Source: Halalkalibacterium halodurans
GTDB lineage: Bacteria > Bacillota > Bacilli > Bacillales > Bacillaceae_D
Length of the DNA stretch: 32,000 bases
Assembly: GCF_004376175.1 (NCBI RefSeq)
Contig: NZ_SNUY01000014.1
Coordinates: 1 to 32,000, forward strand
Reading direction: 5' to 3'
The position numbers and the translations under genes are program-made. Of this stretch, positions 7,059 through 32,000 are shown piece by piece; position 1 is the stretch's first letter, and every line of letters begins with the position of its first letter. The notes under the pieces were generated by a model. The model worked only from the letters and a program-made list of their open reading frames with translations, had not been told where the DNA came from and did no database searches.

Positions 7059-10000
7059 ATGACAGGTCAGTATACCGAAGAAGTGAGAAAAAAGAGAGAA
7101 ATCCTACAGCAGTATTTCCAATCGAACGAACAATCGGCAAACCGATTGTATCCGTTATCGTCTGGACAGGAGACGCTTTGGTGCTCTCACTATATTTCAG
7201 AAAATCAGAATCATTTAAATATGTTTTCAGCATGGAAGCTCCCACATCATGTAAGAATAGACATGTTAGAAAAAGCATTTCAATACCTAGTAGATAAATA
7301 TGAAACACTTAGAACAAATTACATGACTGTGAAAGGTTCTCCATACCAGTATATCCATGAAAATCATAAGGTGAACTTTAGATATGAGGATTTATCCCAT
7401 CTGAGTAGGGTGGAATTTGATAAAAGGTTATCAGGGGAAGCACATGCATCTTTCGACATTGAGAAGGACCCATTATTAAAGATTCGCGTATATAAAAACC
7501 ATGCTGATGAGCAGATTCTTCTTTTTAATGTTCATCATTTAGCAATTGATGGCTGGTCCATTACGATTCTGCTTCAAGAGCTAGGTGAAATGTATAGCAG
7601 GCTAGTATCGGCAGCTTCCCCAATTCGTACAGTGGTTCATGATACATACAGGCAGTTTGTACGTGAGGATAAGCAGAGATTAAAGGAGCAGGGGAAGGCT
7701 GATAATCCTATTAGGAAGTATTGGTCTGAAAGAATACGTGAAGGGGGAGGACTACAACCAGTAAATCTCCCTTCATTAAAAAATACGGGTCATTCCTATA
7801 AAGGGGAGCCCATCTTTTCTAGAATTGAGGAGGATCTGTGTACAAGGTTATATAAGCTTGCTAAAGACAATAAAACGACTGTTTATAATGTATTATTGGC
7901 CAGCTTACATACGTTGCTATACCGGTACACTGGTCAAGAGAACATCTGGGTATCTACGCCTTTTTCGAGAAGGGGAGACGCTCGATGTTTTGACAGTGTA
8001 GGTTATTACGTAAATACATTACATATTCATGGCCGGTTTCATCAGGAAGTAACATTTCATGATATGCTCGCCCAAATATCAAATAGAGTAAAAGAAGTAT
8101 TCAAATACCAAGACATATCCAACTCATTTTTTACAGGTAATGAGGGTTACGCACAGGGGAATACGAATGTTATCTTCAGCTTTCAGAACTTAAATGAGTT
8201 AAAAGAAAGCGGGTTAAGTCTAGTCTTTCTAGGGATAGAAGGGGCAAAAGGGAACGTAGGGCCACTTCAAATCGAGGTGTACCCTTTAAAGAGACGTGTC
8301 GCTCAGTTTGAAGTAGAACTTGAGGTGGTTGAGCACGGCAAAGAGATGTATTTTAGGCTACTCTATGATCCAGAAAAATACGATGCCCATATCATGCAAA
8401 GGATTTGCTCTCATTATGTCAATCTATTATCGGCCATCACTAGTGATCAGCACAGACGAATAACAGATTACCAGTTCTTAAATGAATCTGATGTTGTTGA
8501 ACAACTTCATCAATACAATCATTCAGAGCTAATCAGGCCTAGCGAAAGTAATACCATTCTGCAGCTAATCGAAGAGGTTGCTCTAGTAAAGCCGAATGCT
8601 ATTGCTGTGGTAAGGGGACAAGACTCTATTACGTATACTGAAATTTTGCAACAGGCAGAAATATTGGCTAATAACTTACATTTACTAGGCATCGAGTCTG
8701 AGGATCGCGTAGGCCTCTGTATGAATACGAGTGCAGATCTGATGATCGGTATAGTAGGGATATTAAAAGCGGGAGCGGTATATGTACCATTAGACCCTGC
8801 CTATCCTGCTGGACGGATAGATTATATGATCAACGATAGTGACATTTCATTGATCATTACGGATCAAAGTGTTTCAGCACTAAACGATGTAGGGGCAAGG
8901 AAAGTTTTTCTTCAAGACCTGCTAATAGATCAAGCAGCACCACAAAGAAAAGTTGGAATTCAGTCGAACCAGCTGGCGTACATGATCTATACATCAGGGT
9001 CTACAGGTAAACCGAAGGGGGTTATGGTAAGCCATGGGAACTTATATGCGTCCACATACGCAAGAAGATTCGCATATGAAGAAGATAGACCATGCCGATT
9101 CATACTGCTATCCTCTATTTCCTTCGATAGCTCATTAGTCGGAATATTTTGGACACTGAGTATTGGGGGGACAATCATAATACCGGAAATCAGAGATTTG
9201 CTAGATATCAACGAATTAATAAAAGAAATATCAAACCATAAAGCAACACATTTTCTGAGTGTCCCATCTTTAGCACATGTGTTATTGAGCAGAGCACATC
9301 CAGAGAAAATAAGGAGCTTGGAAACGATCATTGTTGCAGGAGAGCAGTTCCCAAGCAAGTTGCAAGCGTATCAACAGGACAAATACCCCAATCTGAAGAT
9401 CTATAACGAGTATGGTCCAACAGAAGGGACCGTTTGGGGAAGTGTACATCGTTTAAATGATATAACTTATCCGATAGTCCCGATCGGCAAGCCAGCGAAG
9501 CATTGCAAGCTATATATTTTTGATGATGCTTTGAATCTGGTACCTAAAGGAGTTGTTGGCGAACTATTTATTGCTGGATCAGGAGTAACAAGAGGATATA
9601 TCAATCAGCCGAGAATGACTGCTGAGCGCTTTATCCCTAATCCATACGGAGATGGTGAAAGACTTTATCGGACAGGTGACTTAGCCAAATATAACCATGA
9701 TGGAACGATTCAGTTTATCGGTAGAAAAGATAATCAAATTAAAGTAAACGGTTTTAGAATTGAATTAGGTGAGATAGAAGCAACATATGAAAGACATCCA
9801 GTCATACAGAAGGCTGTAGTCATCAACAAAAAAGACCAAGGTGCACAGATAGTTGCCTTTATTAAATGCTCTGACCATTTATCACAGGAGCAGTTAAAAG
9901 AGTACGGCTCAAAGCATCTGCCTCATTATCTGATCCCGCACTACTTTGTAAGCGTTGAGGAGTACCCATTATCACAGAACGGTAAGATAGATCGGAAACG

Positions 10001-11720
10001 GCTCAGAGAGTGGGAGATAGATAGAATAGAAACAGACACCGTACTCCCTAGAAATGAAGTGGAAAGAAAACTGGTGGACATTTTTAAACAAGTGCTACGG
10101 ATCGAACAAATAGGGGTTAACGATAACTTTTTTGAAATGGGTGGAGATTCTATCATAGCCATCCAGATTGCATCAAAAGCTAGTGAAGAAGGTTTAACAC
10201 TTAAACCTAAGGATATTTTTGAAAGCAGGACGATTGCTAGGATTGCACAACAAGTATTAAACAATAGTCAGACTGTGTATGAAGAATCATTAGATATAAA
10301 TGGAGACGTTCCGCTTACTCCTATTCAACAATGGTTTTTTGAACAAAAATTTAACTACCCTAACCATTGGAATCAAGCAATACATCTAAAAATAGATAAG
10401 ACACTACCGTTTGTAATGATTAAGGAAGCTATGGAGGCTGTCATCGGGCAGCATGAAGCGCTTCACATGCGCTTTATGTATAAGGAAGGCGAATGGATTC
10501 AGAAGTACATGCCAGATCATAAATCAGTCCAAATCATTAATATCAAGACAAATCATACTCATCCAAATGCGATGAACAGTACGCAGGATGTTGCTACCAG
10601 CATAGGTAGTTTACAACAGGCGCTTGATTTGCAAGAAGGGCCAACAGTGCTTGCTGCATTGCTCGAAAATGATAAAGACAGTCTAAACAACGATTTCATC
10701 ATCATTATTCATCACTTGCTCGTGGATATTGTTTCGTGGCAGATCATTATGACAGATTTTGAGAGAATACTAAATAAAATGATAGAAAAAGAAAAAATAG
10801 ATATACAGCATAAAACAGCATCATACAAACGCTGGTCAACCCATTTAATAGAATCGCTTCCACTAGTACTGAGTGAGAGTAGTTATTGGAATAGAGTGAA
10901 CGACGCTGTAGCAGTATACGGAGGATCAGAAACAATTACAGGATCAGAAGGAAGTACAGTGAAAATGGAAATGCCTCTAGGTACAGCTGAAACAGAAGAC
11001 CTATTACAGGAGGTTCCTAAGTACTTTGGGACACAGCTGAACGAAGTTGTACTAGCTGCAATAGTGCTTTCTTTAAAGGCTTATACACAACGGGATGGCA
11101 TCGTCATAGATATAGAACATCACGGTAGAGTGCCATTTAATGAAGAGGCAATAGATGTATCAAAAACAGTTGGATGGTTCACTAATATCTACCCGATTTA
11201 TCTTGACTTACAGCAGATTGTCCAACCGAATGGAGATTTGTTAAAACATGTGAAGAATAAGATGCGTGAAGTTCCACATTCAGGGCTTGGCTACGGCATG
11301 TTGAGGTATCTGCAAGCGAAGGGTGCTTGTGATGAATCACAGTCTGAAATGCCGAGGGCTCGGTTTAGTTATAACTTTTTAGGTCAGATAGACCATACAT
11401 TCTTTCATTCTCGTTACTTCACATTTTCTGGATACCTTAGTGAATCTGTTCGTGATCCAAATGAAAAACGCCCTTATTTTCTTGACTTTGAACCGTACAT
11501 TTCTGCAGGAAATTTTGTACTAAGAATCGGCTATAGTAAGGACCTTGTCCCAGATTCCCGAATCCAGCGCCTAGCGGAAGAGACGATTGAACACCTAAAG
11601 TCTTTAATTACTTTATGTAAATCATCAGAAGAAATCGGTTACGTCTCTGGGGACTTTCCTAATGCTAATATTGGCCAAAAAGAGTTAGAAAAGTTCTTAT
11701 CTCATTTGAAAAATCACTAA
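7059..11720 (+). CDS. Non-ribosomal peptide synthetase 1, module 1: C-A-T-E
   Basis: ATG 7059 lies 5 nt after GGGGGGAG; the tracked TTG 7038 is less likely.
- C: YPLSSGQETLW, HHLAIDGWS (nt 7533).
- A: LAYMIYTSGSTGKPKG (8973-9020), NEYGPTE, YRTGDLA, GRKDNQIKVNGFRIE, NGKIDRK.
- T: FFEMGGDSI (Ser codon 10150-10152).
- E: PLTPIQQWFF, HHLLVDIVSW (nt 10710). Confidence 0.95.
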   Translation: MTGQYTEEVRKKREILQQYFQSNEQSANRLYPLSSGQETLWCSHYISENQNHLNMFSAWKLPHHVRIDMLEKAFQYLVDKYETLRTNYMTVKGSPYQYIHENHKVNFRYEDLSHLSRVEFDKRLSGEAHASFDIEKDPLLKIRVYKNHADEQILLFNVHHLAIDGWSITILLQELGEMYSRLVSAASPIRTVVHDTYRQFVREDKQRLKEQGKADNPIRKYWSERIREGGGLQPVNLPSLKNTGHSYKGEPIFSRIEEDLCTRLYKLAKDNKTTVYNVLLASLHTLLYRYTGQENIWVSTPFSRRGDARCFDSVGYYVNTLHIHGRFHQEVTFHDMLAQISNRVKEVFKYQDISNSFFTGNEGYAQGNTNVIFSFQNLNELKESGLSLVFLGIEGAKGNVGPLQIEVYPLKRRVAQFEVELEVVEHGKEMYFRLLYDPEKYDAHIMQRICSHYVNLLSAITSDQHRRITDYQFLNESDVVEQLHQYNHSELIRPSESNTILQLIEEVALVKPNAIAVVRGQDSITYTEILQQAEILANNLHLLGIESEDRVGLCMNTSADLMIGIVGILKAGAVYVPLDPAYPAGRIDYMINDSDISLIITDQSVSALNDVGARKVFLQDLLIDQAAPQRKVGIQSNQLAYMIYTSGSTGKPKGVMVSHGNLYASTYARRFAYEEDRPCRFILLSSISFDSSLVGIFWTLSIGGTIIIPEIRDLLDINELIKEISNHKATHFLSVPSLAHVLLSRAHPEKIRSLETIIVAGEQFPSKLQAYQQDKYPNLKIYNEYGPTEGTVWGSVHRLNDITYPIVPIGKPAKHCKLYIFDDALNLVPKGVVGELFIAGSGVTRGYINQPRMTAERFIPNPYGDGERLYRTGDLAKYNHDGTIQFIGRKDNQIKVNGFRIELGEIEATYERHPVIQKAVVINKKDQGAQIVAFIKCSDHLSQEQLKEYGSKHLPHYLIPHYFVSVEEYPLSQNGKIDRKRLREWEIDRIETDTVLPRNEVERKLVDIFKQVLRIEQIGVNDNFFEMGGDSIIAIQIASKASEEGLTLKPKDIFESRTIARIAQQVLNNSQTVYEESLDINGDVPLTPIQQWFFEQKFNYPNHWNQAIHLKIDKTLPFVMIKEAMEAVIGQHEALHMRFMYKEGEWIQKYMPDHKSVQIINIKTNHTHPNAMNSTQDVATSIGSLQQALDLQEGPTVLAALLENDKDSLNNDFIIIIHHLLVDIVSWQIIMTDFERILNKMIEKEKIDIQHKTASYKRWSTHLIESLPLVLSESSYWNRVNDAVAVYGGSETITGSEGSTVKMEMPLGTAETEDLLQEVPKYFGTQLNEVVLAAIVLSLKAYTQRDGIVIDIEHHGRVPFNEEAIDVSKTVGWFTNIYPIYLDLQQIVQPNGDLLKHVKNKMREVPHSGLGYGMLRYLQAKGACDESQSEMPRARFSYNFLGQIDHTFFHSRYFTFSGYLSESVRDPNEKRPYFLDFEPYISAGNFVLRIGYSKDLVPDSRIQRLAEETIEHLKSLITLCKSSEEIGYVSGDFPNANIGQKELEKFLSHLKNH

Positions 11721-14700
11721 ATGAAAAGCATGGGGGGATATACATAGATATTCGGAACATAGAAAACATATACACCTGCTCACCGATACAAGAAGGGATG
11801 CTATTTCACACATTACATCAACCTGAATCAGGTTTATATGTAGAACAACTAAGCTTTCAAATGATCGGTAAAGTAGAACAAGCAATGTTTGAAAAAGCTT
11901 GGCAGGAAACGATTCAAATGCACTCTGCGTTACGCACCACTTTTCACTGGAAAGAGAGCGATCGAATATTACAGGTTGTTCATAAGCAGATAGATATACG
12001 GGTCAACTATATTGATATACGGCACCATTCGATAGATGAAGGGAAAAATATAGAGTCAATAATAGAAGAAATTGCGGGAAAGTTAAAAAGAGAAGGTTTT
12101 GATTTATCGAAAGGTCCTTTAATGAAACTACATCTGCTAAGAATAGGCGATAATGAGTATCACTTTATTTGGACTTTTCATCATTTACTGCTTGATGGGT
12201 GGTCCATGGGACGAGTGATGCAAGATATTTTGAAGCTTTATGAGGGGTATGTACAAAAAAATCCTGTATTCATTCCTGCCCCTGAACAGTATGAGAGCTA
12301 TATTTCGTGGCTCAACAACCAGGATATGGATGGGGCTAAGCAATTCTGGCTTAATAAGCTGGAAGGGTTTGAGAATATCTGTCCTTTTAGTGCAGGGGAT
12401 TCATTTAGTAAAAGAAAAACACAGCAAGACGGGTACCAGGATCTCTGGCTTTCAGAAACAGTAAAAGAACAATTGGTAAATCTCACGCATGAACATGAGA
12501 TTACAATATTTTCCTTGCTACAGACAGCTTGGATTCTGCTGATTAATGGTAAATATAATATAGAGGATATCGTTATTGGAAACGTCGTTTCTGGAAGACC
12601 CCATGATTTAAAAGGGGCTGAGAACATTGTAGGTCCTTTTATTAATACACTACCGCTAAGGGCAAAGGTGAAAGCGAATGATAGGATACTTACACTCATT
12701 AAGCAAGTGCAACAAGAACAGTTAGAAATCAGTTCCTATGCTTTTACCCCCTTAAAAGACATTCATAAAGTATGTAATTTACAGGGCAACCAATCTTTGT
12801 TTGATAGTATTGTAGTCTTTGAGAATTATCCTTTAGATCAGAGTATGTTTTCAAATGAGGCTTTAGGATTCAGGATTAACAATTTCAGTATAGAGGAAAA
12901 GTCGAACTTTCCTTTAAGCTTAGCGATTATACCGTATGACAATCAGGTCATTCTGCGCTTACATTATGATTCGGAAGTGATGACCTCAGAGCAAACAAAC
13001 AAGATTCTGGAACAAGTTGAGAATATTGTTCAGGAGATCATTCTGGATATAACACGTACAGTAGATTCAATCAGTCTGCTGTCGCCTGAAGATAGAGACA
13101 AGAGCATAATGCAGTCTGAAACAACAGAATGTATCGGAGTAACAGAAAGTGCTCCTCAGGTATCGAATGTGCTACACCAACGGTTTGAGCATCAAGCAGC
13201 ACGTAGGCCTGACAAAATAGCGCTTAGAACAGAGTCTGATCTCTTATCCTATGAACAGTTAAATTGTAAAGCAGAACATATTGCCTCCCTTTTACTCTCT
13301 AAGGGGCTGAAGTTTGAAGAGCGAGTAGCCGTACTATTGAATAGGTCACTGGAATCAATCGTTTCCATGCTAGGCATTCTTAAAGCAGGCGGTGTCTACG
13401 TCCCTCTTGATGTAAACTTACCTCCAGAACGTTTGGAGTATGTGATTCAGGATGCAAATATTCGCACAATGATCACCGAGGAACCGTTCACAGAAAAATA
13501 CAAAGATCAAGTGCTAGATCTGATCAATATCCACCATTCATCAAAGACTCAACACTTAGAGGCAATAGACAGGCCACCAGTTGTAGCCGATCAATTGGCG
13601 TACATTATGTACACCTCAGGTTCTACTGGGCTACCTAAGGGAGTAGCTGTTACACACGAGGCAGCAGCTTTGCATTATACTGCTTTTCAACAGCAGTTTC
13701 AATTGAGTGAAGATGACGTTGTTTTGCAATTTAGTGCAATGACCTTCGATCCATCCATTGAGCAGGTTTTTCCAACACTTTTCAGTGGTGGAGAGGTCTT
13801 CGTTCGGGGGGAGGATGTTTGGGATGCACAACACTTTGTTCACACGCTAGAAGAATACGCAATTACGGTCGCGAATTTACCGACGGCGTACTTTTATGAG
13901 GTAGTGAATAGCCTTATGATCACAACTCAGTGCTTGAGCCTTCCAGCGTTACGTTTTTTAGCGATCGGGGGGGATAAGCTTTCATATAAACATGTTCAGC
14001 TATGGAATCGACTCAATCAAGGAAAGACACAATTGTTTAACTTTTACGGCCCAACAGAAACTGTAACAACGAGCACATTCTATTTAGTCCAACCGAGTAA
14101 TCTGTTAGATGAGATCAGTACGATTCCAATTGGTATACCTATGAGCGGTAGAAAGTTATATATTCTTGACACGTATGGTAGACCAGTACCGTCAGGGGAA
14201 AAGGGCGAGCTATGCATAGGAGGCAATATCATCGCACGTGGTTATGTTAATAAACCGAGACTGACTGCCCAACGATTTATTCCCGACCCTTTCAGTACAG
14301 AAGAAGGAGCCTTAATGTACAGGACAGGCGACATTGTTCGCCTTAATGAACACGGAGACCTAGAATATATAGGGCGAAATGACGATCAGGTAAAAATACG
14401 TGGTTATCGAATAGAAATAGGAGAAATAGAAAAAGCGCTGCTTACAATTCGTGAAGTTGAAGACGTAGCGGTCATTGTACATGATCAAGATACTCGTTCA
14501 AAAACATTAGTAGCATACGTGGTTGTTGCTGGCGATATGGACAGGCAAAGGATAAAAAGGAAGTTAAAAGATAAGCTCCCAGAATATATGCTACCAAAAC
14601 AAATCATGTTTTTGGACCGCTTGCCATTAAATACGAATGGAAAAGTGGATAGAAAATCGCTACCACTTGTTCATCTTCAAGATGAAGAGTATAAAGAGAA

Positions 14701-18914: not shown

Positions 18915-18925
18915 GGGGGATGAAC

Positions 18926-22099: not shown

Positions 22100-22123
22100 G
22101 GTGATATAAGTAGGTGAATGTAT

Positions 22124-25100
22124 ATGAGCTTTTCAAAAGAAATGGAAATTCTTGATCAGCTATTAAAAGATGAAGGTGAAAGTGATCGTATCCCAAGAAG
22201 AACTAATCGAGCAGAATACCCTTTATCATTTGCCCAAGAGCGGCTTTGGTTTATCCAGCAGTTAGATCATCACAGTGCAGCGTACAATATCCCCTTAGCG
22301 ATTAGATTGGCTGGTGCTCTTGATACAGAAAAATTGGAACGCTGTTTTAATAAGGTCATTGAAAGGCACGAGGTGCTACGTGCAACATTTAAGAAAGAAA
22401 ATGGGAAAGCGAATCAGCATATTATTTCAGCCCAGTATTATCCTATTTCTTTACACGATTTAAGTACACTCTCTTATGCTGAAAGAGAGAATGAGGCCAG
22501 AAGTGTTGCTCAGAAATTAGCCTGTAAACCGTTTGACTTGAGTGAAGGGCCTTTATTCCGTATTCAATTAATAAAATTACAAGCGAATGAACATATCCTC
22601 GTTCTGATCATGCATCATATCGTATCAGATGGTTGGTCTACAGGAGTGTTGATTAATGAACTGACTAAGCTGTATCATGCGAATGAAGAAGAATGGAATG
22701 AGATACTCCCAGACCTATCTATCACATATTCTGACTATGCAGCTTGGCAGAGAAAAAAATATGAAAACGGTGATTATCAGAAGCAACTGGAATACTGGAA
22801 AAAGATAATAGGAACAGAATCGACGAAGCTTGCACTTCCTTATGATTTCCCTAAAGCGAATGCGGCTAGTCAATATGGTGATGTTGAGTGCTTCACAGTT
22901 CCGTTGTCGGTGACAAAAGCGGTTAAGCACACGAGCCAAAAGCTAGGAGTATCAGCTTTTACAATCTTACTTTCCGCATACTATCTATTCTTATTTCGGT
23001 ACTGCAACCAAAAAGAAATAATAGTGGGAACACCTGTGGCGAATCGTAACCAGTTTGAAACTGAGTCACTTATTGGCTGTATTGCGAACACGATTCCATT
23101 AAAAATGAATGTTGAAAGCGATTCTACTGTGAAGGATTTCATTGCAGAAGTAAGTCGTACAACATTAGAAGCTTATCAGAATCAGGATGTTCCTTTCGAG
23201 AAAATAGTAGATGAGCTTAAAGCTGAACGTACACTATATCAATCACCAATATTTGAAACGATGTTTACATTTCAAAATCAACATCGAAACTTAATCACTT
23301 TAGATCGGAGCATAGAGACACAACCGTACCACTTACAGTTAGATGCAAGCAAGTTTGATTTATCCTTATCAATCATGGAAGTGGATGGAGAATATGACTG
23401 TGTATTTGAATATCGAACAGAGCTTTTCAGGCAAGATTCAATTAAACGGATGGCCAGTAACTTTATTTGTATATTAGAAGGAATGGTAGATGAGCCATTA
23501 AATACGATTCATACGCTTCAGTATATGGATCAAGAAGAGCAGAAACTAATGAGTGTAGCATCGTCCTTAGTCTATAAAAAGGGAGATATGATTTTTCAGC
23601 GCTTTGAGCATCAGGTGCTACAGAACCCTGATGTGATCGCAGTTGATGACGGTAAGCAAAGGCTATCGTATGCGGAATTAAACAATAAATCCAACAAGTT
23701 AGCTAGATATTTGCGGAGAAATGGTGTAAATACAGAAGCGAAAGTACTCATTCAATTGGACCGTTCAATAGATTTAATCATTGCAATTTTAGGTGTATTA
23801 AAAGCAGGTGGGACCTACATACCCGTTGACCCAGAGCAACCTGCTGAAAGAACAAAGTATATCATCAACGACGCTAAATGCGAGTATATGCTTACAAAAT
23901 CAAAATATATGAAAGATAACCAGCTGGAATTGGATCAACGAATCCTGTATATAGACCTGCATGATCAGAGGTGGTTAAAAGAGGAAGAAAAGAATTTAGC
24001 ATCTGTAGGAATGTCACCTGATCAAGTCGCTTATATGATCTACACATCAGGTTCAACCGGGAAGCCAAAAGGAGTGTGTAATACACATTACAATGTCATC
24101 CGCTTGTTTGATAGCGCTGAACAACATTTTGATTTTGGCCGTGATGATGTCTGGACCCTCTTTCACTCTATAGCGTTTGATTTCTCGGTGTGGGAGATGT
24201 GGGGGGCCCTACTTAATGGTGGAAAACTCATGATTGTACCGCATGAGCTACGTAGAAATCCTGAAGCATTTTACAAATTCATGAGTGAAAATCGTGTTAC
24301 TGTTTTAAATCAGACACCTTCTGCATTTAAAGTAATTGTTCGGTTGGCGAAGCACACTCAGCATCCTCTGTTTCTTAAGTACGTTATTTTCGGAGGAGAA
24401 GCATTAGATTATCAAGACTTGACAGCATGGTTTGAATATCATGGCGAAAAAACAAAAATGATTAACATGTATGGCATCACAGAGACAACGGTTCATGTCA
24501 CCTATAGGGAGGTGAAGAAGTCAGATGTAACTGGAAATCAAGGTAGCTTCATAGGACAACCTTTAAATGATCTTACCATTTATATATTGAATGAGGACTT
24601 ACTTCCAACACCAATTGGCGTTCCTGGAGAAATTTATGTGAGTGGAGCAGGCTTAGCGAGGGGATATTTTAATCGTCCCTCCCTTACTGCGGAGCGCTAT
24701 ATCCCCAACCCATTCAAATCCGGTGGACAAAGGCTATACCGTACAGGGGATATTGCCAAGCGAACGGTGAACGGAGACATAGAATATCTAGGTAGATCGG
24801 ACGACCAAGTAAAGGTTAAAGGGCACAGGATTGAATTAGGGGAAATAAAAGCCACTATTGCAGAGGATCACAGGGTAGAAGATTGTGTGGTTTTAGTGGG
24901 ATCGAACAGTAGGAATGAAAAGGAGCTTGCAGCTTTTATTACGTTTAAGCAAAAGGAAGAAACTGAAGAACAGGTACGAGAATTACGCAATCATTTAATT
25001 GATAAGTTGCCGAGATACATGTATCCAGCTCATATTATAGCTGTTGACACTATACCGATGAATGCAAATGGAAAGGTTAACAAAGAGCAATTATTGACTC

Positions 25101-28100
25101 TACGTACTGAAAGCGCTGCTTCTCAAGGAGGTAGGCCACAAACAAAGACTGAAAAAGAGTTGGTTGCCGTCTGGGAAAAAGTATTAGGAAGAAATGGTAT
25201 AGGGATACATGATAATTATTTCTCACTCGGTGGAGACTCGATAAGGAGTGTTCAAGTCATATCTGAGCTACAAGAAATGGGATATGAACTTGAAGTAAAA
25301 GACATGTTCCTTAACCAAACGGTTAAAGAATTGGCAGAATACTTGGAACAGAGCGAAAGTCGTACAACAACGTATAGGCGTACAAAGCCATTTGAACTCA
25401 TTTCAGATAAAGATCGGTCAGCGTTAAGCGAGGCAATAGAAGATGCGTATCCACTTACAAAGCTACAAGAAGGGATGCTTTTCCACATGGAACAGTTTCC
25501 TAATCAACCGATTTATCACAACATCGATAGTGTGCGACTGGAGGGTGCATTAAATATTGACCTATTTAATGAAGCGGTAGCAAGCGTTGTGGAAAACAAT
25601 GTAATGTTACGTACCTCCTTTGACATGTATTCATATTCCGTACCATTACAACTTGTACACAAAAAAGCAAAGCTACCTGTTGGTTATCAAGACATTAGAC
25701 ATTTATCCGAACAAGAGCAGGAGCGAGTCATTGATGAGTATGTTGAACAAGAAAAAATGAATAAGTTCGATTTAAATAAACCGAGTCTGTTAAGGTTCTA
25801 TATTCACCAGCGAACGGCCGAGACATTTCAATTCACGCTTACAGAGTGTCATCTAATATTTGATGGGTGGAGCTTAACATCAACGCTTAGTGAAATCTTT
25901 GACCTATACTTTGATCTGCTTGAAAATAAACGTCAAATGACGGAAAGCAAGGAACTGAATGTACGGTTTAGTGATTTCATACGCTTAGAACAGGAATCGA
26001 TAAATAGTGAGGAACAGCAAGAGTTTTGGAAGAGCTACCTTGACGATTGCCAACTACTAAAATTTAATCATTTGACCCCTGAAACAAAGCATGAATCAGT
26101 GGAAATCCATAGAAGAATCGTTTCATTACCACAGACTGTTAAGAAAAAGTTAAAGCAAATAGCTGCAGATCATAGCGTGACGTTAAAAAGTATGGTATTA
26201 GCCGCTCATATTAAAGCTTTGCAGGTTATTTCAGGGCAATCCGATGTCTTGACTGGGTTGGTTTCAAACGGAAGGATGGAAGTGAAGGATGGGGAGAAAG
26301 TAAAGGGACTATTTCTAAACACACTTCCATTAAGACAGAGAGTGCAACAGGGTACGTGGATCGACTTTATTCATCAAACATTCAAGATGGAACAACAGAT
26401 CCTGCCGTACAGGAGATACCCGTTGCCCGAGATACAGAAAACTGTAGGACAATCTCCATTATTTGAAACAGCGTTTAACTACGTTTACTTTCATTCAATG
26501 GAGCACTTGTTTCAATCGAAAAAGCTTAAGTTTATTGACTTTAATAAAAACTCAGCAAATGATACCCATTTTTCGTTAATGGCTAACTTTGCTGTACATC
26601 CACCACATTACGATATTCAGTTAACTTTAGCTTTTGATCGGAATCGTTTTTCAGAAGAAAAGATGGACTCTGTTGCTGATATCTATCGTAATATCCTAAT
26701 ACAAATCGCTTCTGATCCTTTGATAAATCATAACAACCGTTCCTATCTAGCTGACCAGGAATATAAAAAGGCAGTGTACAAATGGAATGAAACTGATAGA
26801 GGATATGCTGAAAGTGGTTTGACGATTCAACAATTGATCGCCAAGCAAGTTAAACGGACACCAGAACATCCTGCGGTAGTGTTTCAATCGGAGAAGATGA
26901 CTTATGCAGAGCTAAATCAAAAAGCTGATCAGGTTGCTCAGTTTTTAAAGGCACAAGGAATCTCAAATAACGCTTTTGTTGGTGTATATCTTGAACGATC
27001 CTTAGAGATGATGGTTGCATTATTAGGGATTCTTAAAGCAGGATGTGCTTATGTACCATTGGACACATCCTATCCAGAAGAACGAATCAAGTATATGATA
27101 GCTGATGCTGGTGTTGAGTGTATCCTTACAGTGAAACATCAACTAAACAATATTTTGAGCATGAGTAATGATACACCGCAGGACTGTTATGACATACTCG
27201 AAATTCTTAGTGCCCAAGAAAAGCAACCAAGTTCTGATTTTGAGTATCATAGGGGATCAACAGAGGATATTGCTTATATGATTTATACGTCTGGATCAAC
27301 AGGAAATCCAAAAGGGGTAATGATTCCACACAAAGGGATTGTAAACCGTCTTCTGTGGATGCAAGAGGAGTATCAGTTAAACAAGGAGGATCGAGTGCTT
27401 CAAAAAACACCTTTAAGCTTCGATGTTTCTGTATGGGAGTTATTTTGGCCACTGATTACAGGTGCAAGCTTAGTCATCGCTAAGCCTGAAGGTCATAAAG
27501 ATAGCTACTATTTAGCAAAGCTAATTAAAGAAGAACAGATCACCACTTTACATTTTGTACCTACAATGCTGCAAGAATTTCTGAATGAAAAAGAATCAGA
27601 GAACTGTACAAGCTTAAAAAGGGTGATTTGTAGTGGTGAGGCTCTTGCCCCAGAACTGAAAGATCGCTTCTATAAAGCATTAAATTCACACCTGCATAAT
27701 TTATACGGCCCTACAGAGGCATCGGTAGATGTGAGTTATTACGCCTGTAAACAAGAGGATTCTTCAGTTTGGATCGGAAAACCGATTGCGAATATACAGC
27801 TCTATGTTCTAAACAAGGATTTGCAACCTGTAGGGGTAGATAGAATAGGAGAGCTGTTTATCAGCGGCATAGGATTAGCGACAGGATATGCGAACAAGCC
27901 TAGTTTAACTGCAGAGAAATTTATACCGAATCCTTTTTCAAAAAAACAAGGCATGAGAATGTATAGCACAGGGGACCTAGTACGCTTATTACCAGACGGA
28001 AATATCGAATACATTGGTAGAAAAGACAGCCAAGTAAAAATCCGTGGAGTAAGGATTGAGTTAAAGGAAATCGAGTCTGCAATGAGAAGCCATCATCATA

Positions 28101-29614
28101 TTAAAGAGGCTGTTGTCGTATTCAATAAGACAGCTAATAGAAACAAAGACTTGCTCGTTGCATATGTTGTTCCAGTGGAACGTGCTGAGTTATCTATAAC
28201 GAAAGTAAAGAAGTATATTTCAACACGTCTCTCTGACTATATGCAGCCAGACCGAGTCATATTTTTGGACAAAATGCCTGTATCACCAAATGGGAAAATT
28301 GACCGAAAAAGTTTGCCAGACCCGTCGGAGGATAGACCAGATCTAGATGCACAGTATGTAGCACCAGAAAAACCACTTGAAAAAGAACTGGTGGAAGTAT
28401 ATAAAAAAGTTCTGAATCTTGAGCGTGTTGGAATACTCGATAACTTCTTTGAATTAGGAGGGAACTCCTTAACAGCCGTATTTTTGATCAATCATATAGA
28501 AAAGTTAACTGGACAGAAGTACCCAATTAATTTGATCTTTGAAAATCCACAAATAAAGGACTTAGCACATGAAATCATGCATCGCAACACATGGGCGGGA
28601 GGAATAGAAAACCTTAGAAGAAAGGATGGAAATCAGGAGAGTAGGGGGATGCTTGTAGATATTCAACCTAATGGAGAGAGACAAGCGTTATTCTTTTCAG
28701 CTCCACTAGGAGGAATCTTACCTTCTACTGTTGTTGCTGGGATAATAGATTTCTCCCATGCGCTTGGGAAAAAGCAACCGTTTTTCGGCATCCAAACCCC
28801 ACCTTTATCTGGTGAACTATCTGCAAAATTGAATCTGGATCAACCGTCTTTCATTGAACAAATGAATGTCGTCCGAGCCTGGGAACCAGATCAGGAGATA
28901 CTCCCAAAGCTAGCGAAAGAAAGTATTAGTATGATCAGGGAAAAGCAACCAAGTGGTCCATACGTCTTAGGTGGGTTTTGTACAGGCTCACATTTAACAC
29001 TTGAGATTGCTAGTCAGCTAGAAAAGGAAGGTGAGCATGTTAAAGAAATTATAATGATTGACTCGTTTGCTCCAGGGTATACCGTCAACGGGGGCGAACA
29101 AGAAACACCTAAAGAGTACATTTTTGACGAGAACGACCCAGTATATATTGGTCAAATGTCACAATCCTTAGCTTGGTTCACTTGTAGGGAAATTGGCATA
29201 AATAAAGTGAGCCAATCCGTTCAAGAGGTTGCAGAAAGGATTAAATGTTTACCAGGCATGGATCAACGTTGGGAGTATATTACGGATGTATTAATTGCTA
29301 GTGAAGTGGTACCGATAGATACTACGTCGTCCGAGACGTACAGATTATACGTATTGTATAAGCTTAATACTGAAGCAACAAGAGTTGCGTTGAATGATTA
29401 CCATCCTAAAAAAGTGAATAGTGATATAACATTATTCATTGCTAAGAACGGATTTGAGGCCGAACTGCATCAGGATCATACGTTGGGCTGGTCGCAGGTA
29501 ACCTTCGGAAATGTGAATGTTAACTATGTATCGGGAGACCATTTAACAGTCTTAACAGTTCCAAACGTGTATGAGATTACGGATATCCTGGACAAACGTC
29601 TACGGTCTAAATAA
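22124..29614 (+). CDS. Non-ribosomal peptide synthetase 4: C-A(Thr-like)-T-C-A(Ser-like)-T-TE
   Basis: ATG 22124 lies 6 nt after TAGGTGA; the tracked ATG 22118 abuts the RBS.
- C1: YPLSFAQERLWF, HHIVSDGWS (nt 22613).
- A1: VAYMIYTSGSTGKPKG. Code read by eye is DFWNIGMVHK, the Thr code.
- T1: GGDSI.
- C2: YPLTKLQEGMLFH, CHLIFDGWS (nt 25847).
- A2: IAYMIYTSGSTGNPKG. Code read by eye is DVWHISLVDK, against the Ser code DVWHLSLIDK.
- T2: GGNSL.
- TE: GPYVLGGFCTGS, IMIDSFAP, SGDHLTV. Confidence 0.95.
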   Translation: MSFSKEMEILDQLLKDEGESDRIPRRTNRAEYPLSFAQERLWFIQQLDHHSAAYNIPLAIRLAGALDTEKLERCFNKVIERHEVLRATFKKENGKANQHIISAQYYPISLHDLSTLSYAERENEARSVAQKLACKPFDLSEGPLFRIQLIKLQANEHILVLIMHHIVSDGWSTGVLINELTKLYHANEEEWNEILPDLSITYSDYAAWQRKKYENGDYQKQLEYWKKIIGTESTKLALPYDFPKANAASQYGDVECFTVPLSVTKAVKHTSQKLGVSAFTILLSAYYLFLFRYCNQKEIIVGTPVANRNQFETESLIGCIANTIPLKMNVESDSTVKDFIAEVSRTTLEAYQNQDVPFEKIVDELKAERTLYQSPIFETMFTFQNQHRNLITLDRSIETQPYHLQLDASKFDLSLSIMEVDGEYDCVFEYRTELFRQDSIKRMASNFICILEGMVDEPLNTIHTLQYMDQEEQKLMSVASSLVYKKGDMIFQRFEHQVLQNPDVIAVDDGKQRLSYAELNNKSNKLARYLRRNGVNTEAKVLIQLDRSIDLIIAILGVLKAGGTYIPVDPEQPAERTKYIINDAKCEYMLTKSKYMKDNQLELDQRILYIDLHDQRWLKEEEKNLASVGMSPDQVAYMIYTSGSTGKPKGVCNTHYNVIRLFDSAEQHFDFGRDDVWTLFHSIAFDFSVWEMWGALLNGGKLMIVPHELRRNPEAFYKFMSENRVTVLNQTPSAFKVIVRLAKHTQHPLFLKYVIFGGEALDYQDLTAWFEYHGEKTKMINMYGITETTVHVTYREVKKSDVTGNQGSFIGQPLNDLTIYILNEDLLPTPIGVPGEIYVSGAGLARGYFNRPSLTAERYIPNPFKSGGQRLYRTGDIAKRTVNGDIEYLGRSDDQVKVKGHRIELGEIKATIAEDHRVEDCVVLVGSNSRNEKELAAFITFKQKEETEEQVRELRNHLIDKLPRYMYPAHIIAVDTIPMNANGKVNKEQLLTLRTESAASQGGRPQTKTEKELVAVWEKVLGRNGIGIHDNYFSLGGDSIRSVQVISELQEMGYELEVKDMFLNQTVKELAEYLEQSESRTTTYRRTKPFELISDKDRSALSEAIEDAYPLTKLQEGMLFHMEQFPNQPIYHNIDSVRLEGALNIDLFNEAVASVVENNVMLRTSFDMYSYSVPLQLVHKKAKLPVGYQDIRHLSEQEQERVIDEYVEQEKMNKFDLNKPSLLRFYIHQRTAETFQFTLTECHLIFDGWSLTSTLSEIFDLYFDLLENKRQMTESKELNVRFSDFIRLEQESINSEEQQEFWKSYLDDCQLLKFNHLTPETKHESVEIHRRIVSLPQTVKKKLKQIAADHSVTLKSMVLAAHIKALQVISGQSDVLTGLVSNGRMEVKDGEKVKGLFLNTLPLRQRVQQGTWIDFIHQTFKMEQQILPYRRYPLPEIQKTVGQSPLFETAFNYVYFHSMEHLFQSKKLKFIDFNKNSANDTHFSLMANFAVHPPHYDIQLTLAFDRNRFSEEKMDSVADIYRNILIQIASDPLINHNNRSYLADQEYKKAVYKWNETDRGYAESGLTIQQLIAKQVKRTPEHPAVVFQSEKMTYAELNQKADQVAQFLKAQGISNNAFVGVYLERSLEMMVALLGILKAGCAYVPLDTSYPEERIKYMIADAGVECILTVKHQLNNILSMSNDTPQDCYDILEILSAQEKQPSSDFEYHRGSTEDIAYMIYTSGSTGNPKGVMIPHKGIVNRLLWMQEEYQLNKEDRVLQKTPLSFDVSVWELFWPLITGASLVIAKPEGHKDSYYLAKLIKEEQITTLHFVPTMLQEFLNEKESENCTSLKRVICSGEALAPELKDRFYKALNSHLHNLYGPTEASVDVSYYACKQEDSSVWIGKPIANIQLYVLNKDLQPVGVDRIGELFISGIGLATGYANKPSLTAEKFIPNPFSKKQGMRMYSTGDLVRLLPDGNIEYIGRKDSQVKIRGVRIELKEIESAMRSHHHIKEAVVVFNKTANRNKDLLVAYVVPVERAELSITKVKKYISTRLSDYMQPDRVIFLDKMPVSPNGKIDRKSLPDPSEDRPDLDAQYVAPEKPLEKELVEVYKKVLNLERVGILDNFFELGGNSLTAVFLINHIEKLTGQKYPINLIFENPQIKDLAHEIMHRNTWAGGIENLRRKDGNQESRGMLVDIQPNGERQALFFSAPLGGILPSTVVAGIIDFSHALGKKQPFFGIQTPPLSGELSAKLNLDQPSFIEQMNVVRAWEPDQEILPKLAKESISMIREKQPSGPYVLGGFCTGSHLTLEIASQLEKEGEHVKEIIMIDSFAPGYTVNGGEQETPKEYIFDENDPVYIGQMSQSLAWFTCREIGINKVSQSVQEVAERIKCLPGMDQRWEYITDVLIASEVVPIDTTSSETYRLYVLYKLNTEATRVALNDYHPKKVNSDITLFIAKNGFEAELHQDHTLGWSQVTFGNVNVNYVSGDHLTVLTVPNVYEITDILDKRLRSK

Positions 29615-29630
29615 AGAAGGGGGAGTATGA

Positions 29631-31274
29631 ATGAGTATATACAAATATCTGTTTTCCATTTCCAAAAAGAATGTGCTTTATGCTCTGATTGCTGGTCTCA
29701 TTAGTGGGGCCAGCAGTACAGGTGTCATCGCTGTCATAAACCACACCATAAACAATCAGCAAAGTACGGGTTACCATATTGTATTAGCGTTTATCGCCTT
29801 GTGCTTAACGATGCTTTTGAGCAGTTTAGTGTCTGGATATTTATTGATTAAGCTTGCACAAGGGTCAATCATCAATTTACGTATTAACCTGAGTAAGCGC
29901 ATTCTATCAACCCCACTTAGGAAGGTAGAACAGAATGGCTCTCACAGGCTGTTAGCATCGTTAACTGACGATGTAATGGCAATCGCGAATGCTATTACGG
30001 TTAGTCCAATGCTGATCATTAATCTTTTCATTGTTCTGGGATGTCTAATCTACATGGGATGGCTATCCATATCAGTGCTCTTCATTGGACTAACATTTAT
30101 GACGATAGCATTTTTTAGCTACCAAATGCTGATGAAGATAGCTAACAAATATCTAGCAAGTGCGAGAGAGGAACACGACTCACTTTTTAGACATTTTAAA
30201 TCACTTACAAGCGGAACAAAAGAATTAAAAATGAGCAAACAGCGTCGAATAGATTTCTTCGATAAGCAGTTAACACCAACAATAAGGGGTGTTTATAAGG
30301 ACACTGTAAAAGGCATGACAATATATACTGCAGCTGGAAACTGGGGACAAATGCTATTCCTGTTTTTTATTGCGCTGGTCATCTTCTTTATTCCCCAGCT
30401 TAACCTAGTCAGTACAGAGATATTAACTGGATATACGCTATCGATTTTATATATGATCACACCTTTGGTTACAATCCTTAATGTCTTTCCAAACTTCGGG
30501 CGTGCCAATGTGGCTCTTAGGAAGATTGAAAAGCTCGAACTCGCTACAGAGGATGAAGAGTTGATGAGCAATCGAGAACAGTTACCGAGTAGTTTTAACG
30601 AGATCAGACTAATAGATTTAACCCACACGTATTATCGAGAAGAGGAAGATCATAACTTTACACTCGGACCAATCAATTTGACCTTCAAAGAAAATGAGCT
30701 CATCTTCCTCGTAGGTGGTAACGGGAGTGGAAAAACAACACTAGCCAAACTGATTACCGGGTTATATGAGCCTGAAGGGGGGAGGATAGAGGTCAATGGT
30801 CAGCCTATCACAGATAAGCACATTGATCATTACCGCCAGCTCTTTTCTACAGTGTTCTCAGATTTTTATCTTTTCGAGCAATTTATTGGTATCTCAGAAG
30901 ACAAAGTAAAAGAGGAAGCGGAAGAGTACCTGCGGCTTCTTCAACTAAATCATAAGGTAAAGGTTGAAGAAGATCGCTTATCAACAACAGATCTGTCAGG
31001 AGGACAAAGGAAGCGACTTGCGTTGTTAGTTTCATATCTGGAGGATAGACCATTTTATGTATTTGATGAATGGGCGGCAGATCAGGATCCGCTGTTCAAA
31101 GACTTCTTTTATACAAAACTTCTACCAGCTTTGAAAGGTAAGGGCAAGACGGTGCTTGTAATCTCACATGATGATAAATATTTCAACGTGGCGGACAGAA
31201 TCATTAAGATAGACTACGGGCAAGTGATAAAAGATGAGCCTATTGAAGCACTATCACAGCAAGCAGCTGAGTAA
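29631..31274 (+). CDS. Cyclic-peptide export ABC transporter (fused TMD-NBD, SyrD/PvdE/YojI family)
   Basis: N-terminal multi-TM region. Walker A is GGNGSGKTT, signature LSGGQRKRLAL, Walker B region FYVFDEWAADQDP (the EWAADQDP stretch is characteristic of this family). RBS AAGAAGGGGGAG. Confidence 0.9.
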   Translation: MSIYKYLFSISKKNVLYALIAGLISGASSTGVIAVINHTINNQQSTGYHIVLAFIALCLTMLLSSLVSGYLLIKLAQGSIINLRINLSKRILSTPLRKVEQNGSHRLLASLTDDVMAIANAITVSPMLIINLFIVLGCLIYMGWLSISVLFIGLTFMTIAFFSYQMLMKIANKYLASAREEHDSLFRHFKSLTSGTKELKMSKQRRIDFFDKQLTPTIRGVYKDTVKGMTIYTAAGNWGQMLFLFFIALVIFFIPQLNLVSTEILTGYTLSILYMITPLVTILNVFPNFGRANVALRKIEKLELATEDEELMSNREQLPSSFNEIRLIDLTHTYYREEEDHNFTLGPINLTFKENELIFLVGGNGSGKTTLAKLITGLYEPEGGRIEVNGQPITDKHIDHYRQLFSTVFSDFYLFEQFIGISEDKVKEEAEEYLRLLQLNHKVKVEEDRLSTTDLSGGQRKRLALLVSYLEDRPFYVFDEWAADQDPLFKDFFYTKLLPALKGKGKTVLVISHDDKYFNVADRIIKIDYGQVIKDEPIEALSQQAAE

Positions 31275-31353: not shown

Positions 31354-31563
31354 ATGGAGAACACAAACATCCAATATAAAGTTGTATACAATCACGAAGA
31401 ACAGTACTCAATTTGGCCAGCTCATAGAGAGCTGCCGAACGGATGGTTTGAGGAGGGTACGATTGGAGAGAAGGAAGAATGTCTTCAACGGATCGAGGAA
31501 GTATGGACAGATATGAGACCACTAAGTCTAAGAAAGCAACTATCTAAGGCTGAAGGCAATTAA
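31354..31563 (+). CDS. MbtH-like protein
   Basis: 69 aa. YKVVYNHEEQYSIWPAHRELPNGW...CLQRIEEVWTDMRPLSLR carries the three conserved Trp and the SxWP, GW and WTDMRP motifs. RBS GAAAGGGGGTGA. Confidence 0.9.
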   Translation: MENTNIQYKVVYNHEEQYSIWPAHRELPNGWFEEGTIGEKEECLQRIEEVWTDMRPLSLRKQLSKAEGN

Positions 31564-31614
31564 TATAAAGCTTTATACATGTATTGATCTTTTAAAAAGG
31601 GGTGCATACGTGAG

Positions 31615-32000
31615 GTGAGCAACACTAGATATGAAGAAAAGTTACCTGATCTCTATTCTCTTAATAGAGATCAGGCTCAGCAGCATATTCTGAAATACCT
31701 AGAGCAGCTATTAATCGAACATACTGAATATGATGCGCAGCTCGAGATCGAAAATGTGAAGATCATGGAATGGGTACAGGACTCATTAACAGCAATTAAG
31801 CTAAAGGCACACATAGAAAAAGATATAGGAATAGAGATAGACGTATCTGAACTGTTTGAAGAGCAATCACTATTACAGTTAACAGCAATGATGATTGACC
31901 TCGTAGATGAACTGAGGCATTCATCCAGCTCTTCTATTGATTCGGGTGAGGAAAAGGATTTCTTCACTGAAGAGCTACAAAAGATGAGTGACGAAGAGAT
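31615..32000 (+). CDS. Partial CDS (3' end outside window) beginning with an acyl/peptidyl carrier domain
   Basis: Not in the ORF track because it has no stop. It is open from GTG 31615 to the window end. MEWVQDSLTAIKLKAHIEKDIGIEIDVSELFEEQSLLQLTAMMIDLV is carrier-protein-like, with the DSL Ser codon at 31783-31785. A Ser-rich/acidic linker (HSSSSSIDSGEEKDFFTEELQKMSDEE) follows. The start codon is uncertain and the RBS is weak (AAGGGG 12 nt upstream). Confidence 0.6.
   Translation, partial: MSNTRYEEKLPDLYSLNRDQAQQHILKYLEQLLIEHTEYDAQLEIENVKIMEWVQDSLTAIKLKAHIEKDIGIEIDVSELFEEQSLLQLTAMMIDLVDELRHSSSSSIDSGEEKDFFTEELQKMSDEE

Follow-up and report, generated by a model that had tools for sequence, protein, structure and literature searches.

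Interface domains of nonribosomal peptide synthetases (NRPSs), which have the fold of a condensation (C) domain without both catalytic His residues, were first defined with their partner hydroxylases in siderophore clusters, and the literature on them covers the hydroxylation of Asp, His, and Glu. A review of dehydroamino acid biosynthesis places the McyA2/AmbE-type C domains in a dehydrating clade and reports that thiolation (T) domains of the GGDSI type feed epimerization (E) domains, D-donor C domains, dual condensation/epimerization (C/E) domains, and dehydrating C domains. As for chain release, ObiF and SulM are known Cys thioesterases that form beta-lactone or beta-lactam rings and carry their Asp after strand beta7, and the thioesterase (TE) domain of AB3403 has its Asp in the usual position. 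Here, we describe an NRPS locus of Halalkalibacterium halodurans (contig NZ_SNUY01000014.1, positions 1 to 32,000 of the forward strand; this whole 32,000-nucleotide stretch is called the window, and position 1 is its first letter) in which relatives of these systems appear side by side.

Our preferred reading, which we hold to be probable though by no means certain, is that the window contains the surviving 3' part of a non-ribosomal lipopeptide cluster that has lost its beginning and keeps a five-module core. It draws on observed domain identities, motifs, synteny, and truncation. One long array of plus-strand genes runs from ~7.0 kb to the end of the window, with every predicted gene in its stated place, and reads C-A-T-E / C-A-T-E-C / TauD / C*-A-T / C-A-T-C-A-T-TE (A, adenylation; C*, a C-like domain discussed below), followed by a cyclic-peptide ABC exporter, an MbtH protein, and a carrier protein. 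The co-linear, single-strand repeats of C, A, and T (PP-binding) domains end in a terminal TE; the core motifs A3, A5, and A10, the T-domain serine motifs, and HHxxxDG were located in the NRPS genes; and the Pfam E-values of the array span 1e-14 to 1e-244, so that chance is ruled out for it. The array is as follows, all on the plus strand.

7059-11720, plus: NRPS gene 1, module 1 (open reading frame [ORF] start 7038/7059 in Pfam); two Condensation stretches, AMP-binding, PP-binding
~7146-8489, ~8571-9986, ~10068-10250, ~10290-11717, plus: C, A, T (GGDSI), and E domains of gene 1 (Pfam, motifs)
11744-17842, plus: NRPS gene 2, module 2 and the C domain of module 3 (11798-17842 as an ORF with canonical start); three Condensation, AMP-binding, PP-binding
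Up to ~13099, ~13184-14644, ~14738-14920, plus: D-donor C, A, and T (GGDSI) domains of gene 2 (Pfam, motifs)
~14960-16387, 16415-17839, plus: E domain and C-terminal D-donor C domain of gene 2 (Pfam, motifs, and Protein Data Bank [PDB] ranking of the C-terminal C)
17883-18914, plus: stand-alone Fe(II)/alpha-ketoglutarate dioxygenase of the TauD family (Pfam, 149.8 bits)
18920-22099, plus: NRPS gene 4, module 3 without a C domain of its own; weak Pfam Condensation (141 bits), AMP-binding, PP-binding
~18944-20218, ~20303-21745, ~21827-22015, plus: interface-type C-like, A, and T (GGHSL) domains of gene 4 (Pfam, motifs)
22118-29614, plus: NRPS gene 5, modules 4 and 5; two C, two A, two T, and Thioesterase in Pfam
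22208-23551, ~23630-25087, ~25157-25345, plus: L-donor C, A4, and T4 (GGDSI) of module 4 (Pfam, motifs)
25430-26797, 26840-28297, ~28385-28582, ~28670-29611, plus: McyA2/AmbE-like C, A5, T5 (GGNSL), and TE of module 5 (Pfam, motifs)
29631-31274, plus: fused permease/ATPase ABC exporter of the cyclic-peptide (SyrD/PvdE) family (Pfam ABC_membrane and ABC_tran; TIGR01194)
31354-31563, plus: MbtH-like protein, 69 aa (Pfam PF03621, 67.1 bits)
31615-32000, plus: 5' part, from a GTG, of a 141-aa stand-alone carrier protein that leaves the window ('VQDSL' motif; PP-binding)

Gene 1 starts at the ATG used by NCBI (7059; P0121, 1553 aa), and the HHxxxDG motif of its C domain is intact. The E-domain signatures PIQxWF, TVGWFT, and FNYLG occur in the second Condensation stretch of gene 1 and in the middle one of gene 2, EGHGRE being limited to the E domain of gene 2, and both E domains are followed by a D-donor-type C domain, with 'CSPIQEGMLFH' at the 5' end of gene 2 and 'SPIQEGMLFHS' at its residue 1540. 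The first C domain of gene 5 reads 'YPLSFAQERLWF' at residue 34. When compared with solved structures, the C-terminal C domain of gene 2 ranks McyB1, SrfA-C, and TycB1 first, which are D-donor C domains following E domains, and the first C domain of gene 5 has Txo1, Txo2, and TycC6 as its closest matches. The exporter passes the TIGR01194 model 'cyclic peptide export ABC transporter' (474.5 bits versus a cut-off of 286.2), and the full-length 141-aa copy of the carrier protein, found on a near-identical contig, gives a PP-binding match of 28.5 bits. An Rfam scan of the window returned no families. The original prediction, made by a model from the sequence alone, had parsed this domain order correctly; the C-domain start motifs that it quoted are all present in the genes concerned, its D-/L-donor logic holds for modules 2, 3, and 4, and its SyrD/PvdE-type exporter, MbtH protein, and further carrier-domain ORF were all recovered. 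As an observation it is confirmed; its interpretation is supported in part and corrected on five points. Among the features corrected or missed are the Cys nucleophile of the TE and the ATA start of gene 2, both described below.

The 5' end of the array is best understood from its closest relative, known from two contigs of Logan assemblies (L014 and L015; L001 and L013 to L019 designate our comparison contigs). There, the gene 1 ortholog is immediately preceded by a type II thioesterase (TEII) gene and a C-A-T-C-A-T gene of 2098 aa, and the first C domain of this 2098-aa gene product begins 'YPMSAAQRRIY', a start that resembles those of surfactin-type starter domains. The corresponding region of the window holds the following features.

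6863-6991, plus: 3'-end remnant of an upstream NRPS gene that has been lost (last 43 codons, T-domain tail, in-frame TAA; tblastn, DNA alignment)
5342-6356, minus: transposase pseudogene fragments, four short ORFs in different frames, located between TetR and the NRPS array (tblastn)
6625-6653, plus: sigma-70-type promoter consensus (TTGACA, 17 nt, TATAAT; 12/12 matches), a consensus match only
6983-7014, no strand assigned: 32-nt perfect palindrome with a 14-bp stem, between the remnant and the ribosome-binding site of gene 1 (centroid -20.5 kcal/mol, z-score -4.3)
11744-11746, plus: ATA codon where relatives have the ATG start of gene 2 (alignment to relatives)

The remnant matches the C terminus of the 2098-aa NRPS of L014 in tblastn at 65% identity (E 3e-13) with the stop inside the match, and the homology ends just past the carrier serine motif. 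Gene 1 has an N-terminal extension of 28 aa in common with its L014 ortholog, which is missing in Metabacillus arenae and in L017, two lines that naturally begin with the gene 1 ortholog; moreover, the gene 1 C domain scores 121 bits against TycC6, an elongation C domain, versus 70 bits against the surfactin starter C domain. The line is thus truncated at its 5' end: only the last 43 codons of the initiation gene are left, adjacent to transposase debris, of which the fragment at 5765-6001 is 68.5% identical to annotated transposases of Alicyclobacillus plasmids in tblastn. A Pfam search of the short ORFs at 4497-6356 gave no match. Since the remnant is no more diverged from its L014 counterpart (65%) than the intact gene 1 is from its own L014 ortholog (64%), the loss looks recent. 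Hence, the five-module line of the original prediction holds for the modules left in this genome, but the nearest relative has seven.

Gene 2 has been affected as well. The window reads ...GGGGGGATATAC ATA GAT ATT... where the relative reads ...GGGGGATTTGC ATG GAT ATT..., encoding MDIRNIENIYTC, and the gene 2 orthologs of 2030, 2028, and 2000 aa all begin at this conserved ATG position. The ribosome-binding site and its spacing are unchanged relative to the relative; the first canonical start, ATG 11798, lies inside the C1 motif and downstream of the SPIQEG motif at the 5' end of gene 2. A tiny ORF (MKSMGGYT*, 11721-11746) directly follows the gene 1 stop and passes through a G6 homopolymer, one more G of which would join its ATG to gene 2. 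A frameshift in this G6 run (11732-11737) as the source of the start problem was ruled out, the relative showing a plain ATG-to-ATA difference. The promoter consensus lies ~400 nt upstream of gene 1 in sequence without counterpart in the seven-module relative; the palindrome, which is followed by no T-run on the plus strand, could be an operator or an mRNA hairpin.

These observations raise the question of whether the copy is a dead relic, left once the initiation bimodule and the gene 2 start had been lost, whose intact ORFs merely reflect how recent the damage is. We regard this as a serious contender, although less probable than not. The truncation with its in-frame stop and transposase debris, the ATA at the gene 2 start, the near-equal divergence of remnant and gene 1 that speaks for recent loss, and the lack of any phosphopantetheinyl transferase (PPTase) or TEII gene adjoining the cluster, unlike in the relatives, all favor it; on the other side, 22.5 kb of NRPS coding sequence contains no frameshift or stop, an independent sequencing run gave the same sequence, there is a consensus promoter upstream, and rare start codons are still able to initiate translation. 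The doubt on productivity comes from the missing starter bimodule, linked PPTase/TEII pair, and normal gene 2 start, weighed against the 22.5 kb that remain intact, and we give a productive and an unproductive copy equal chances.

The opposite explanation, a complete and functional five-module line making (acyl)-D-Xaa-D-Xaa-L-(beta-OH)Xaa-L-Thr-L-Ser with ordinary C domains throughout and a lipo-initiating first C domain, is in our opinion unlikely. It agrees with the intact ORFs and the intact HHxxxDG of the gene 1 C domain, with the lines of M. arenae and L017 that start with the orthologous gene, and with the fatty acyl-AMP ligase-like (FAAL) gene and carrier proteins downstream, but it leaves aside the upstream NRPS remnant with its stop at 6863-6991, the docking-type N-terminal extension that gene 1 keeps, the closeness of the gene 1 C domain to TycC6 rather than to the surfactin starter C domain, the absence of a canonical start at the conserved site of gene 2, and a C domain after module 4 that is far nearer to McyA2 and AmbE than to L-donor C domains.

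The substrates of the truncated line were approached through the A-domain codes, which were read by alignment to a reconstructed GrsA core, motif positions being checked by eye.

A1, DSVSIAEVWK: 8/10 to the published His code DSALIAEVWK; His-like
A2, DPE[A/T]AGFTTK: no residue fixed; Glu239 hints at a basic side chain
A3, DAKSLGLSNK: no residue fixed; Lys239 hints at an acidic side chain; not an Asp code
A4, DFWSIGMVHK: 9/10 to published Thr/dehydrobutyrine (Dhb) codes; Thr
A5, DVWTISLVDK: 8/10 to the published Ser code, without His278; Ser-like

A3 is possibly Glu-like, Lys239 being a residue that occurs in Glu codes. In the relative at 56 to 75% identity, the five codes recur with a single change, Leu/Phe at position 299 of A3; those of A1 to A3 are identical or nearly so in all four members of the family described below. 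A full-text literature search for the exact codes matched only a paper on a His code.

The C domain between modules 4 and 5, which the original prediction had treated as ordinary, is the second point of correction. It begins 'YPLTKLQEGMLFH' and carries CHLIFDG (25847-25867), its N terminus reads 'LTKLQEGMLFH', which is of the D-donor type, and module 4 has no E domain. When compared with all solved structures, it scores 363 bits against the C domain of McyA2 and 175 bits against the CmodAA domain of AmbE, followed by 174 bits for the D-donor C domain of McyB1 and at most 137 bits for the remaining C domains. The first of these structures, 8JBR, is the C domain that follows the Mdha (dehydroalanine-forming) module of microcystin synthetase and has HxxxD only. 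On the donor side, T4 is of the GGDSI type and follows the Thr-coding A4, as expected of the module feeding a dehydrating C domain, and these features are kept in the relative L013. We therefore consider that the domain is probably a dehydrating C domain of the CmodAA type and that residue 4 would be dehydrobutyrine rather than L-Thr. In the predicted ending L-Thr4-L-Ser5, the codes agree with Thr as residue 4 and with a Ser-like residue 5, but L-Thr4 itself is unlikely because the C domain is McyA2/AmbE-like and fed by a GGDSI T domain. Just past this GGDSI, window position 25254 is an A (Gln1046), versus a G (Arg) in contig SRR31300264_19.

The main alternative to dehydrobutyrine is a dual C/E domain after Thr, giving D-allo-Thr at position 4. 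The D-donor-type N terminus, the upstream GGDSI T domain, and the missing E domain would all suit it, within the window the domain is nearer to the D-donor than to the L-donor C domains, and the review of dehydroamino acids places some Dhb-forming C domains in the C/E clade. Nevertheless, we judge it quite unlikely, given that the best solved relatives are McyA2-C and AmbE CmodAA and that the extended HH[I/L]xxxxGD motif, typical of dual domains, is not there, the sequence being 'FHMEQFPNQPIYH'.

A further correction concerns module 3, where the original prediction had placed the domain C*. This domain at the N terminus of gene 4 aligns with C domains, with a Pfam Condensation score of only 141 bits, but the position of HHxxxDG reads SALNADA (19343-19363), and SALNSDV and IALCTDF in the relatives L013 and M. 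arenae, respectively, so that the catalytic His pair is gone. It stands before the A domain of a module served by a hydroxylase, with a real C domain on the preceding protein, in the window as in all three relatives. In the domain layout, condensation in module 3 falls to the C-terminal C domain of gene 2, which would act in trans. Wider homologs of gene 4 are mostly cyanobacterial proteins of ~1050 to 1100 aa with 'PALCAD' at the motif position, and both distant homologs sampled (2/2; L018 from Nostoc sp., and L019 from a JGI metagenome) stand in a 'C / TauD / I-A-T' order with a stand-alone C domain. From motif and gene order, we assign C* not as a degenerate C domain but as an interface domain in a conserved 'C / TauD / I-A-T' cassette predicted to perform beta-hydroxylation. 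Modules of this kind, with a trans-acting hydroxylase and an interface domain, were reportedly described for beta-OH-Asp siderophores by Reitz et al. in 2019. The A codes of interface-type homologs differ (DSASIAEVW, His-like, in L018; DLTSVGEVG, Asn/Asp-like, in L019; DAKQLGLAN, close to A3 of the window, in P0016), which suggests a portable hydroxylation unit with varied substrates. The cassettes of L018 and L019 lie within hybrids of polyketide synthase (PKS) and NRPS, and the second-best solved match of the gene 4 domain is the P450-recruiting X-domain 4TX2.

The hydroxylase itself exceeds the PF02668 cut-off widely (149.8 bits versus 27), and its triad H124-x-E126...H318 was aligned to At3g21360; its identity is 61% with the M. 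arenae copy and 45% with the TauD protein of the Nostoc cassette. A reading from its second-best solved relative, the sulfoquinovose dioxygenase 9YUT, was uninformative. An assignment as a siderophore-type aspartyl beta-hydroxylase (TBH_Asp) or as SyrP does not fit the code of the partner A domain, DAKSLGLSNK, which is conserved across the family and is not the Asp code DLTKVGHVGK. A peptide metallophore with beta-hydroxy-acid and His ligands, made by an alkaliphile in need of strong iron chelators, would find some support in the siderophore origin of the hydroxylase-interface arrangement, in the His-like first A code, in the MbtH protein, and in a gene for a Fur-regulated small protein (Fur_reg_FbpB) ~6 kb upstream in M. 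arenae, but it is very unlikely and a Fur-regulated siderophore cluster was rejected, with no Asp code at A3, no Fur box near the promoter and matches elsewhere at chance level, no siderophore-binding or uptake genes in the ~51 kb seen (window plus L001), and the same cassette in the non-siderophores glidomide and myxoglucamide.

The TE at the end of gene 5 differs from the usual Ser enzymes in its nucleophile.

28970-28987, plus: TE nucleophile motif GGFCTG, with Cys where Ser is usual (alignment to AB3403 and the fatty acid synthase TE)
29051-29068, plus: TE Asp in 'IMIDSF'
29534-29551, plus: TE His in 'GDH'

GGFCTG aligns with the GxSxG motif (GYSYGA) of the fatty acid synthase TE and with GGWCFGG of AB3403, the best solved TE match at 53 bits, and the Cys is kept in the relative L013. 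A ring-forming TE of the ObiF/SulM type was considered, for which the Cys would fit; it was not retained because the Asp aligns with that of AB3403 ('MID') and no ObiF or SulM chain was matched up to E 1.

The array does not end with the window. Contig L001 (Logan SRR31300264_19), with 1 difference in 10,647 bases relative to the window (the A/G at 25254), continues it in the following order.

Past the window, first part: 141-aa carrier protein, FabG-like reductase (ketoreductase, KR), 83-aa acyl carrier protein (ACP), ketosynthase (KS), second KS-like protein (chain length factor, CLF)
Past the window, second part: FabZ-like dehydratase (DH), FAAL, class III aminotransferase, aldehyde dehydrogenase

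The KS has the Cys-His-His residues and its partner has Gln at the Cys position without both His (Gln-type CLF), and together with the discrete ACP these genes, just outside the window, fit a type II PKS KS/CLF system; no enoyl reductase was found in the L001 cassette. From its gene content, we class the cassette with the type II PKS-like systems that build unsaturated acyl tails, and the carrier ORF that the original prediction saw leaving the window is its first gene, the rest having been missed. The carrier protein and the reductase (short-chain dehydrogenase/reductase family) are syntenic in the 56% relative L013. After the FAAL gene (L001 16593-19438, ~37.9 to 40.8 kb in window coordinates) lie an aminotransferase of the GABA (gamma-aminobutyrate)-transaminase family, above the TIGR00700 cut-off, and an overlapping aldehyde dehydrogenase. 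Both share the low GC content at third codon positions (GC3) of the cluster (0.31 to 0.32), and they may be the source of an unusual starter acid or a cotransferred GABA-shunt pair.

The cluster belongs to a very rare, four-member Bacillaceae family on low-GC3 DNA, made up of the window locus and three others. Among 5.8 billion proteins, gene 4 matches an NCBI protein of H. halodurans at 100%, then one at 56%, and the rest at no more than 32%. Relatives of gene 1 are found at 64% (Logan SRR28496334 and SRR28496352, the same organism), 48% (Logan SRR31641224), and 47% (M. arenae), and all three relatives share the order gene 1, gene 2, TauD, gene 4. A scan of GTDB representative genomes with the downstream KS gave distant relatives only, at no more than 47% and in unrelated phyla, and a scan of JGI metagenomes with modules 4b-5 gave relatives at 31 to 47% identity only. 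Nothing on an NRPS cluster of H. halodurans or M. arenae turned up in the literature searched. The orphan status claimed in the original prediction therefore stands, with two to three relatives above ~45% identity in the 5.8 billion proteins and no published description found.

The GC3 of the cluster genes is 0.29 to 0.37 (~0.40 for the exporter and MbtH genes) versus 0.39 to 0.46 for the upstream host genes, the low values running on through the aminotransferase and aldehyde dehydrogenase genes, and in the closest relative the cluster occupies another chromosomal site, behind a GerA-family gene and a DAP (diaminopimelate)-decarboxylase-type gene; the low GC3 and this other site point to horizontal spread. 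The host genes upstream (window 15-4455) comprise the C terminus of a sigma-54-type activator, a hydantoinase-A-like protein (GC 48.6%), a small alarmone synthetase (RelA_SpoT domain, YjbM-like), a DUF5392 protein, and a TetR regulator. Among the relatives, a frameshift of one base breaks the gene 2 ortholog in two in SRR28496334 (124 + 1905 aa; L013/L014, ~3190 / 15063), but the ortholog is intact in SRR28496352 (2030 aa; L015), the split being either an assembly error or a strain variant. The five-module relatives L017 (2278-5178) and L016 (4340-5809) have a flavin amine oxidase near their NRPS genes, and L017 also has an amidinotransferase/arginine-deiminase-family gene, neighbors that hint at a guanidino- or Arg-derived building block in that branch.

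We propose a model in which the ancestral line would begin with the TEII and the starter bimodule (C-A-T-C-A-T). The type II PKS-like set (FAAL, two carrier proteins, KS, Gln-type CLF, KR, and FabZ-like DH) would make an unsaturated acyl chain for the starter C domain. Module 1 would then activate and epimerize a His-like residue, and module 2 a residue that is possibly basic. In module 3, the C-terminal C domain of gene 2 would work in trans with gene 4, and TauD, accompanied by the catalytically dead interface domain, would beta-hydroxylate the residue bound to T3, possibly a Glu-like one. Thr would be activated by module 4, and the McyA2/AmbE-like C domain of module 5 would dehydrate it to dehydrobutyrine while joining a Ser-like residue, before release of the chain by the Cys-nucleophile TE and export by the SyrD-type ABC pump. 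The predicted core, if the line is expressed, is D-His, D-Xaa (basic?), beta-OH-Xaa (acidic?), Dhb, and a Ser-like residue. In this model, substrates, dehydration, acylation, release mode, and the productivity of the present copy are what we infer.

Several points weigh against our reading of a truncated lipopeptide line. For A2, A3, and A5, no substrate could be assigned, and the A3 code is not an Asp code. Dehydration is deduced from homology only, and the review points out that dehydrating C domains do not share their catalytic residues. For the downstream cassette, the sequence comes from a second assembly (L001) rather than from the window, and its conservation in the relatives covers the first two genes only. 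Moreover, the five large NRPS ORFs (~22.5 kb) have neither frameshift nor stop, and with the perfect promoter consensus they suggest that the copy may be fully functional; truncated need not mean dead. Finally, the orthologous lines of M. arenae and L017 start naturally with gene 1; a five-module line is therefore viable, and the gene 1 C domain may take an acyl donor directly.

All components of this locus belong to known types, but they occur in a rare combination and in a rare family, neither of which is described in the literature searched. It is possible, although we consider it rather doubtful, that the family makes an unseen lipopeptide combining an unsaturated type II PKS tail, D-His, a beta-hydroxylated acidic residue, a Dhb formed by the McyA2-like C domain, and AB3403-type release by a Cys TE. 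If so, the H. halodurans copy would represent a natural experiment in the loss of N-terminal modules, in which seven- and five-module lines share one core. For natural-product discovery, the interest lies in a rare family with no described product and four non-standard NRPS features readable from one molecule. For NRPS enzymology, it would offer a Gram-positive interface/hydroxylase pair acting on a substrate that is neither Asp nor His, a second context for the McyA2-type dehydrating C domain, and an AB3403-type Cys TE with a predictable substrate. The seven-module relative, the natural five-module relatives, and the fresh truncation together display the gain and loss of initiation modules in evolution. 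As the present strain may not make the compound, the seven-module relative or M. arenae would be a better source.

Compared with described systems, module 3 is closest to the beta-OH-Asp siderophores, glidomide (GlmF, beta-OH-His), and myxoglucamide (OxMxgA/MxgB, beta-OH-Glu), where the upstream protein finishes with a C domain and the next protein, past an Fe(II)/alpha-ketoglutarate dioxygenase, opens with a C-like domain without catalytic His, then A-T. It differs from them by its Bacillaceae host and by an A code, DAKSLGLSNK, that fits neither the Asp nor the His code, the likeness being one of motif and gene order. The C domain of module 5 resembles McyA2-C and AmbE-C2 of the AMB pathway in following a Thr/Ser-type module with a GGDSI T domain, and McyA2 also in having HxxxD only; its predicted donor is a Thr-ending tetrapeptide, not N-methyl-Ser or a modified Glu, and the resemblance here is by homology only. 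The TE shares with AB3403, an Acinetobacter baumannii C-A-T-TE protein (PDB 4ZXH), the Cys nucleophile and the Asp after the same strand, but AB3403 is a single-module enzyme of unknown product, and its similarity to the gene 5 TE is modest.

The downstream cassette resembles the highly reducing type II PKSs of the ishigamide, aryl polyene, and skyllamycin type, which make polyene or cinnamoyl tails (cispentacin AmcB/E/F in NCBIfam), in its KS with Cys-His-His, Gln partner, ACP, FabG-like KR, and FabZ-like DH and in having no enoyl reductase. In contrast to those sets, all of its NCBIfam matches are below the family cut-offs, the host belongs to the Bacillaceae, and its product and its link to the NRPS are deduced from adjacency alone. 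As a whole, the locus differs from the syringomycin clusters of Pseudomonas (SyrE, SyrP, SyrD) in peptide length and order, in the lack of chlorination, in its separate E domains instead of dual C/E domains, in the type II PKS-like cassette, and in its Gram-positive host; it resembles them in a TauD-family hydroxylase acting on a carrier-bound residue, in the Dhb predicted here, and in the SyrD-family pump (TIGR01194).

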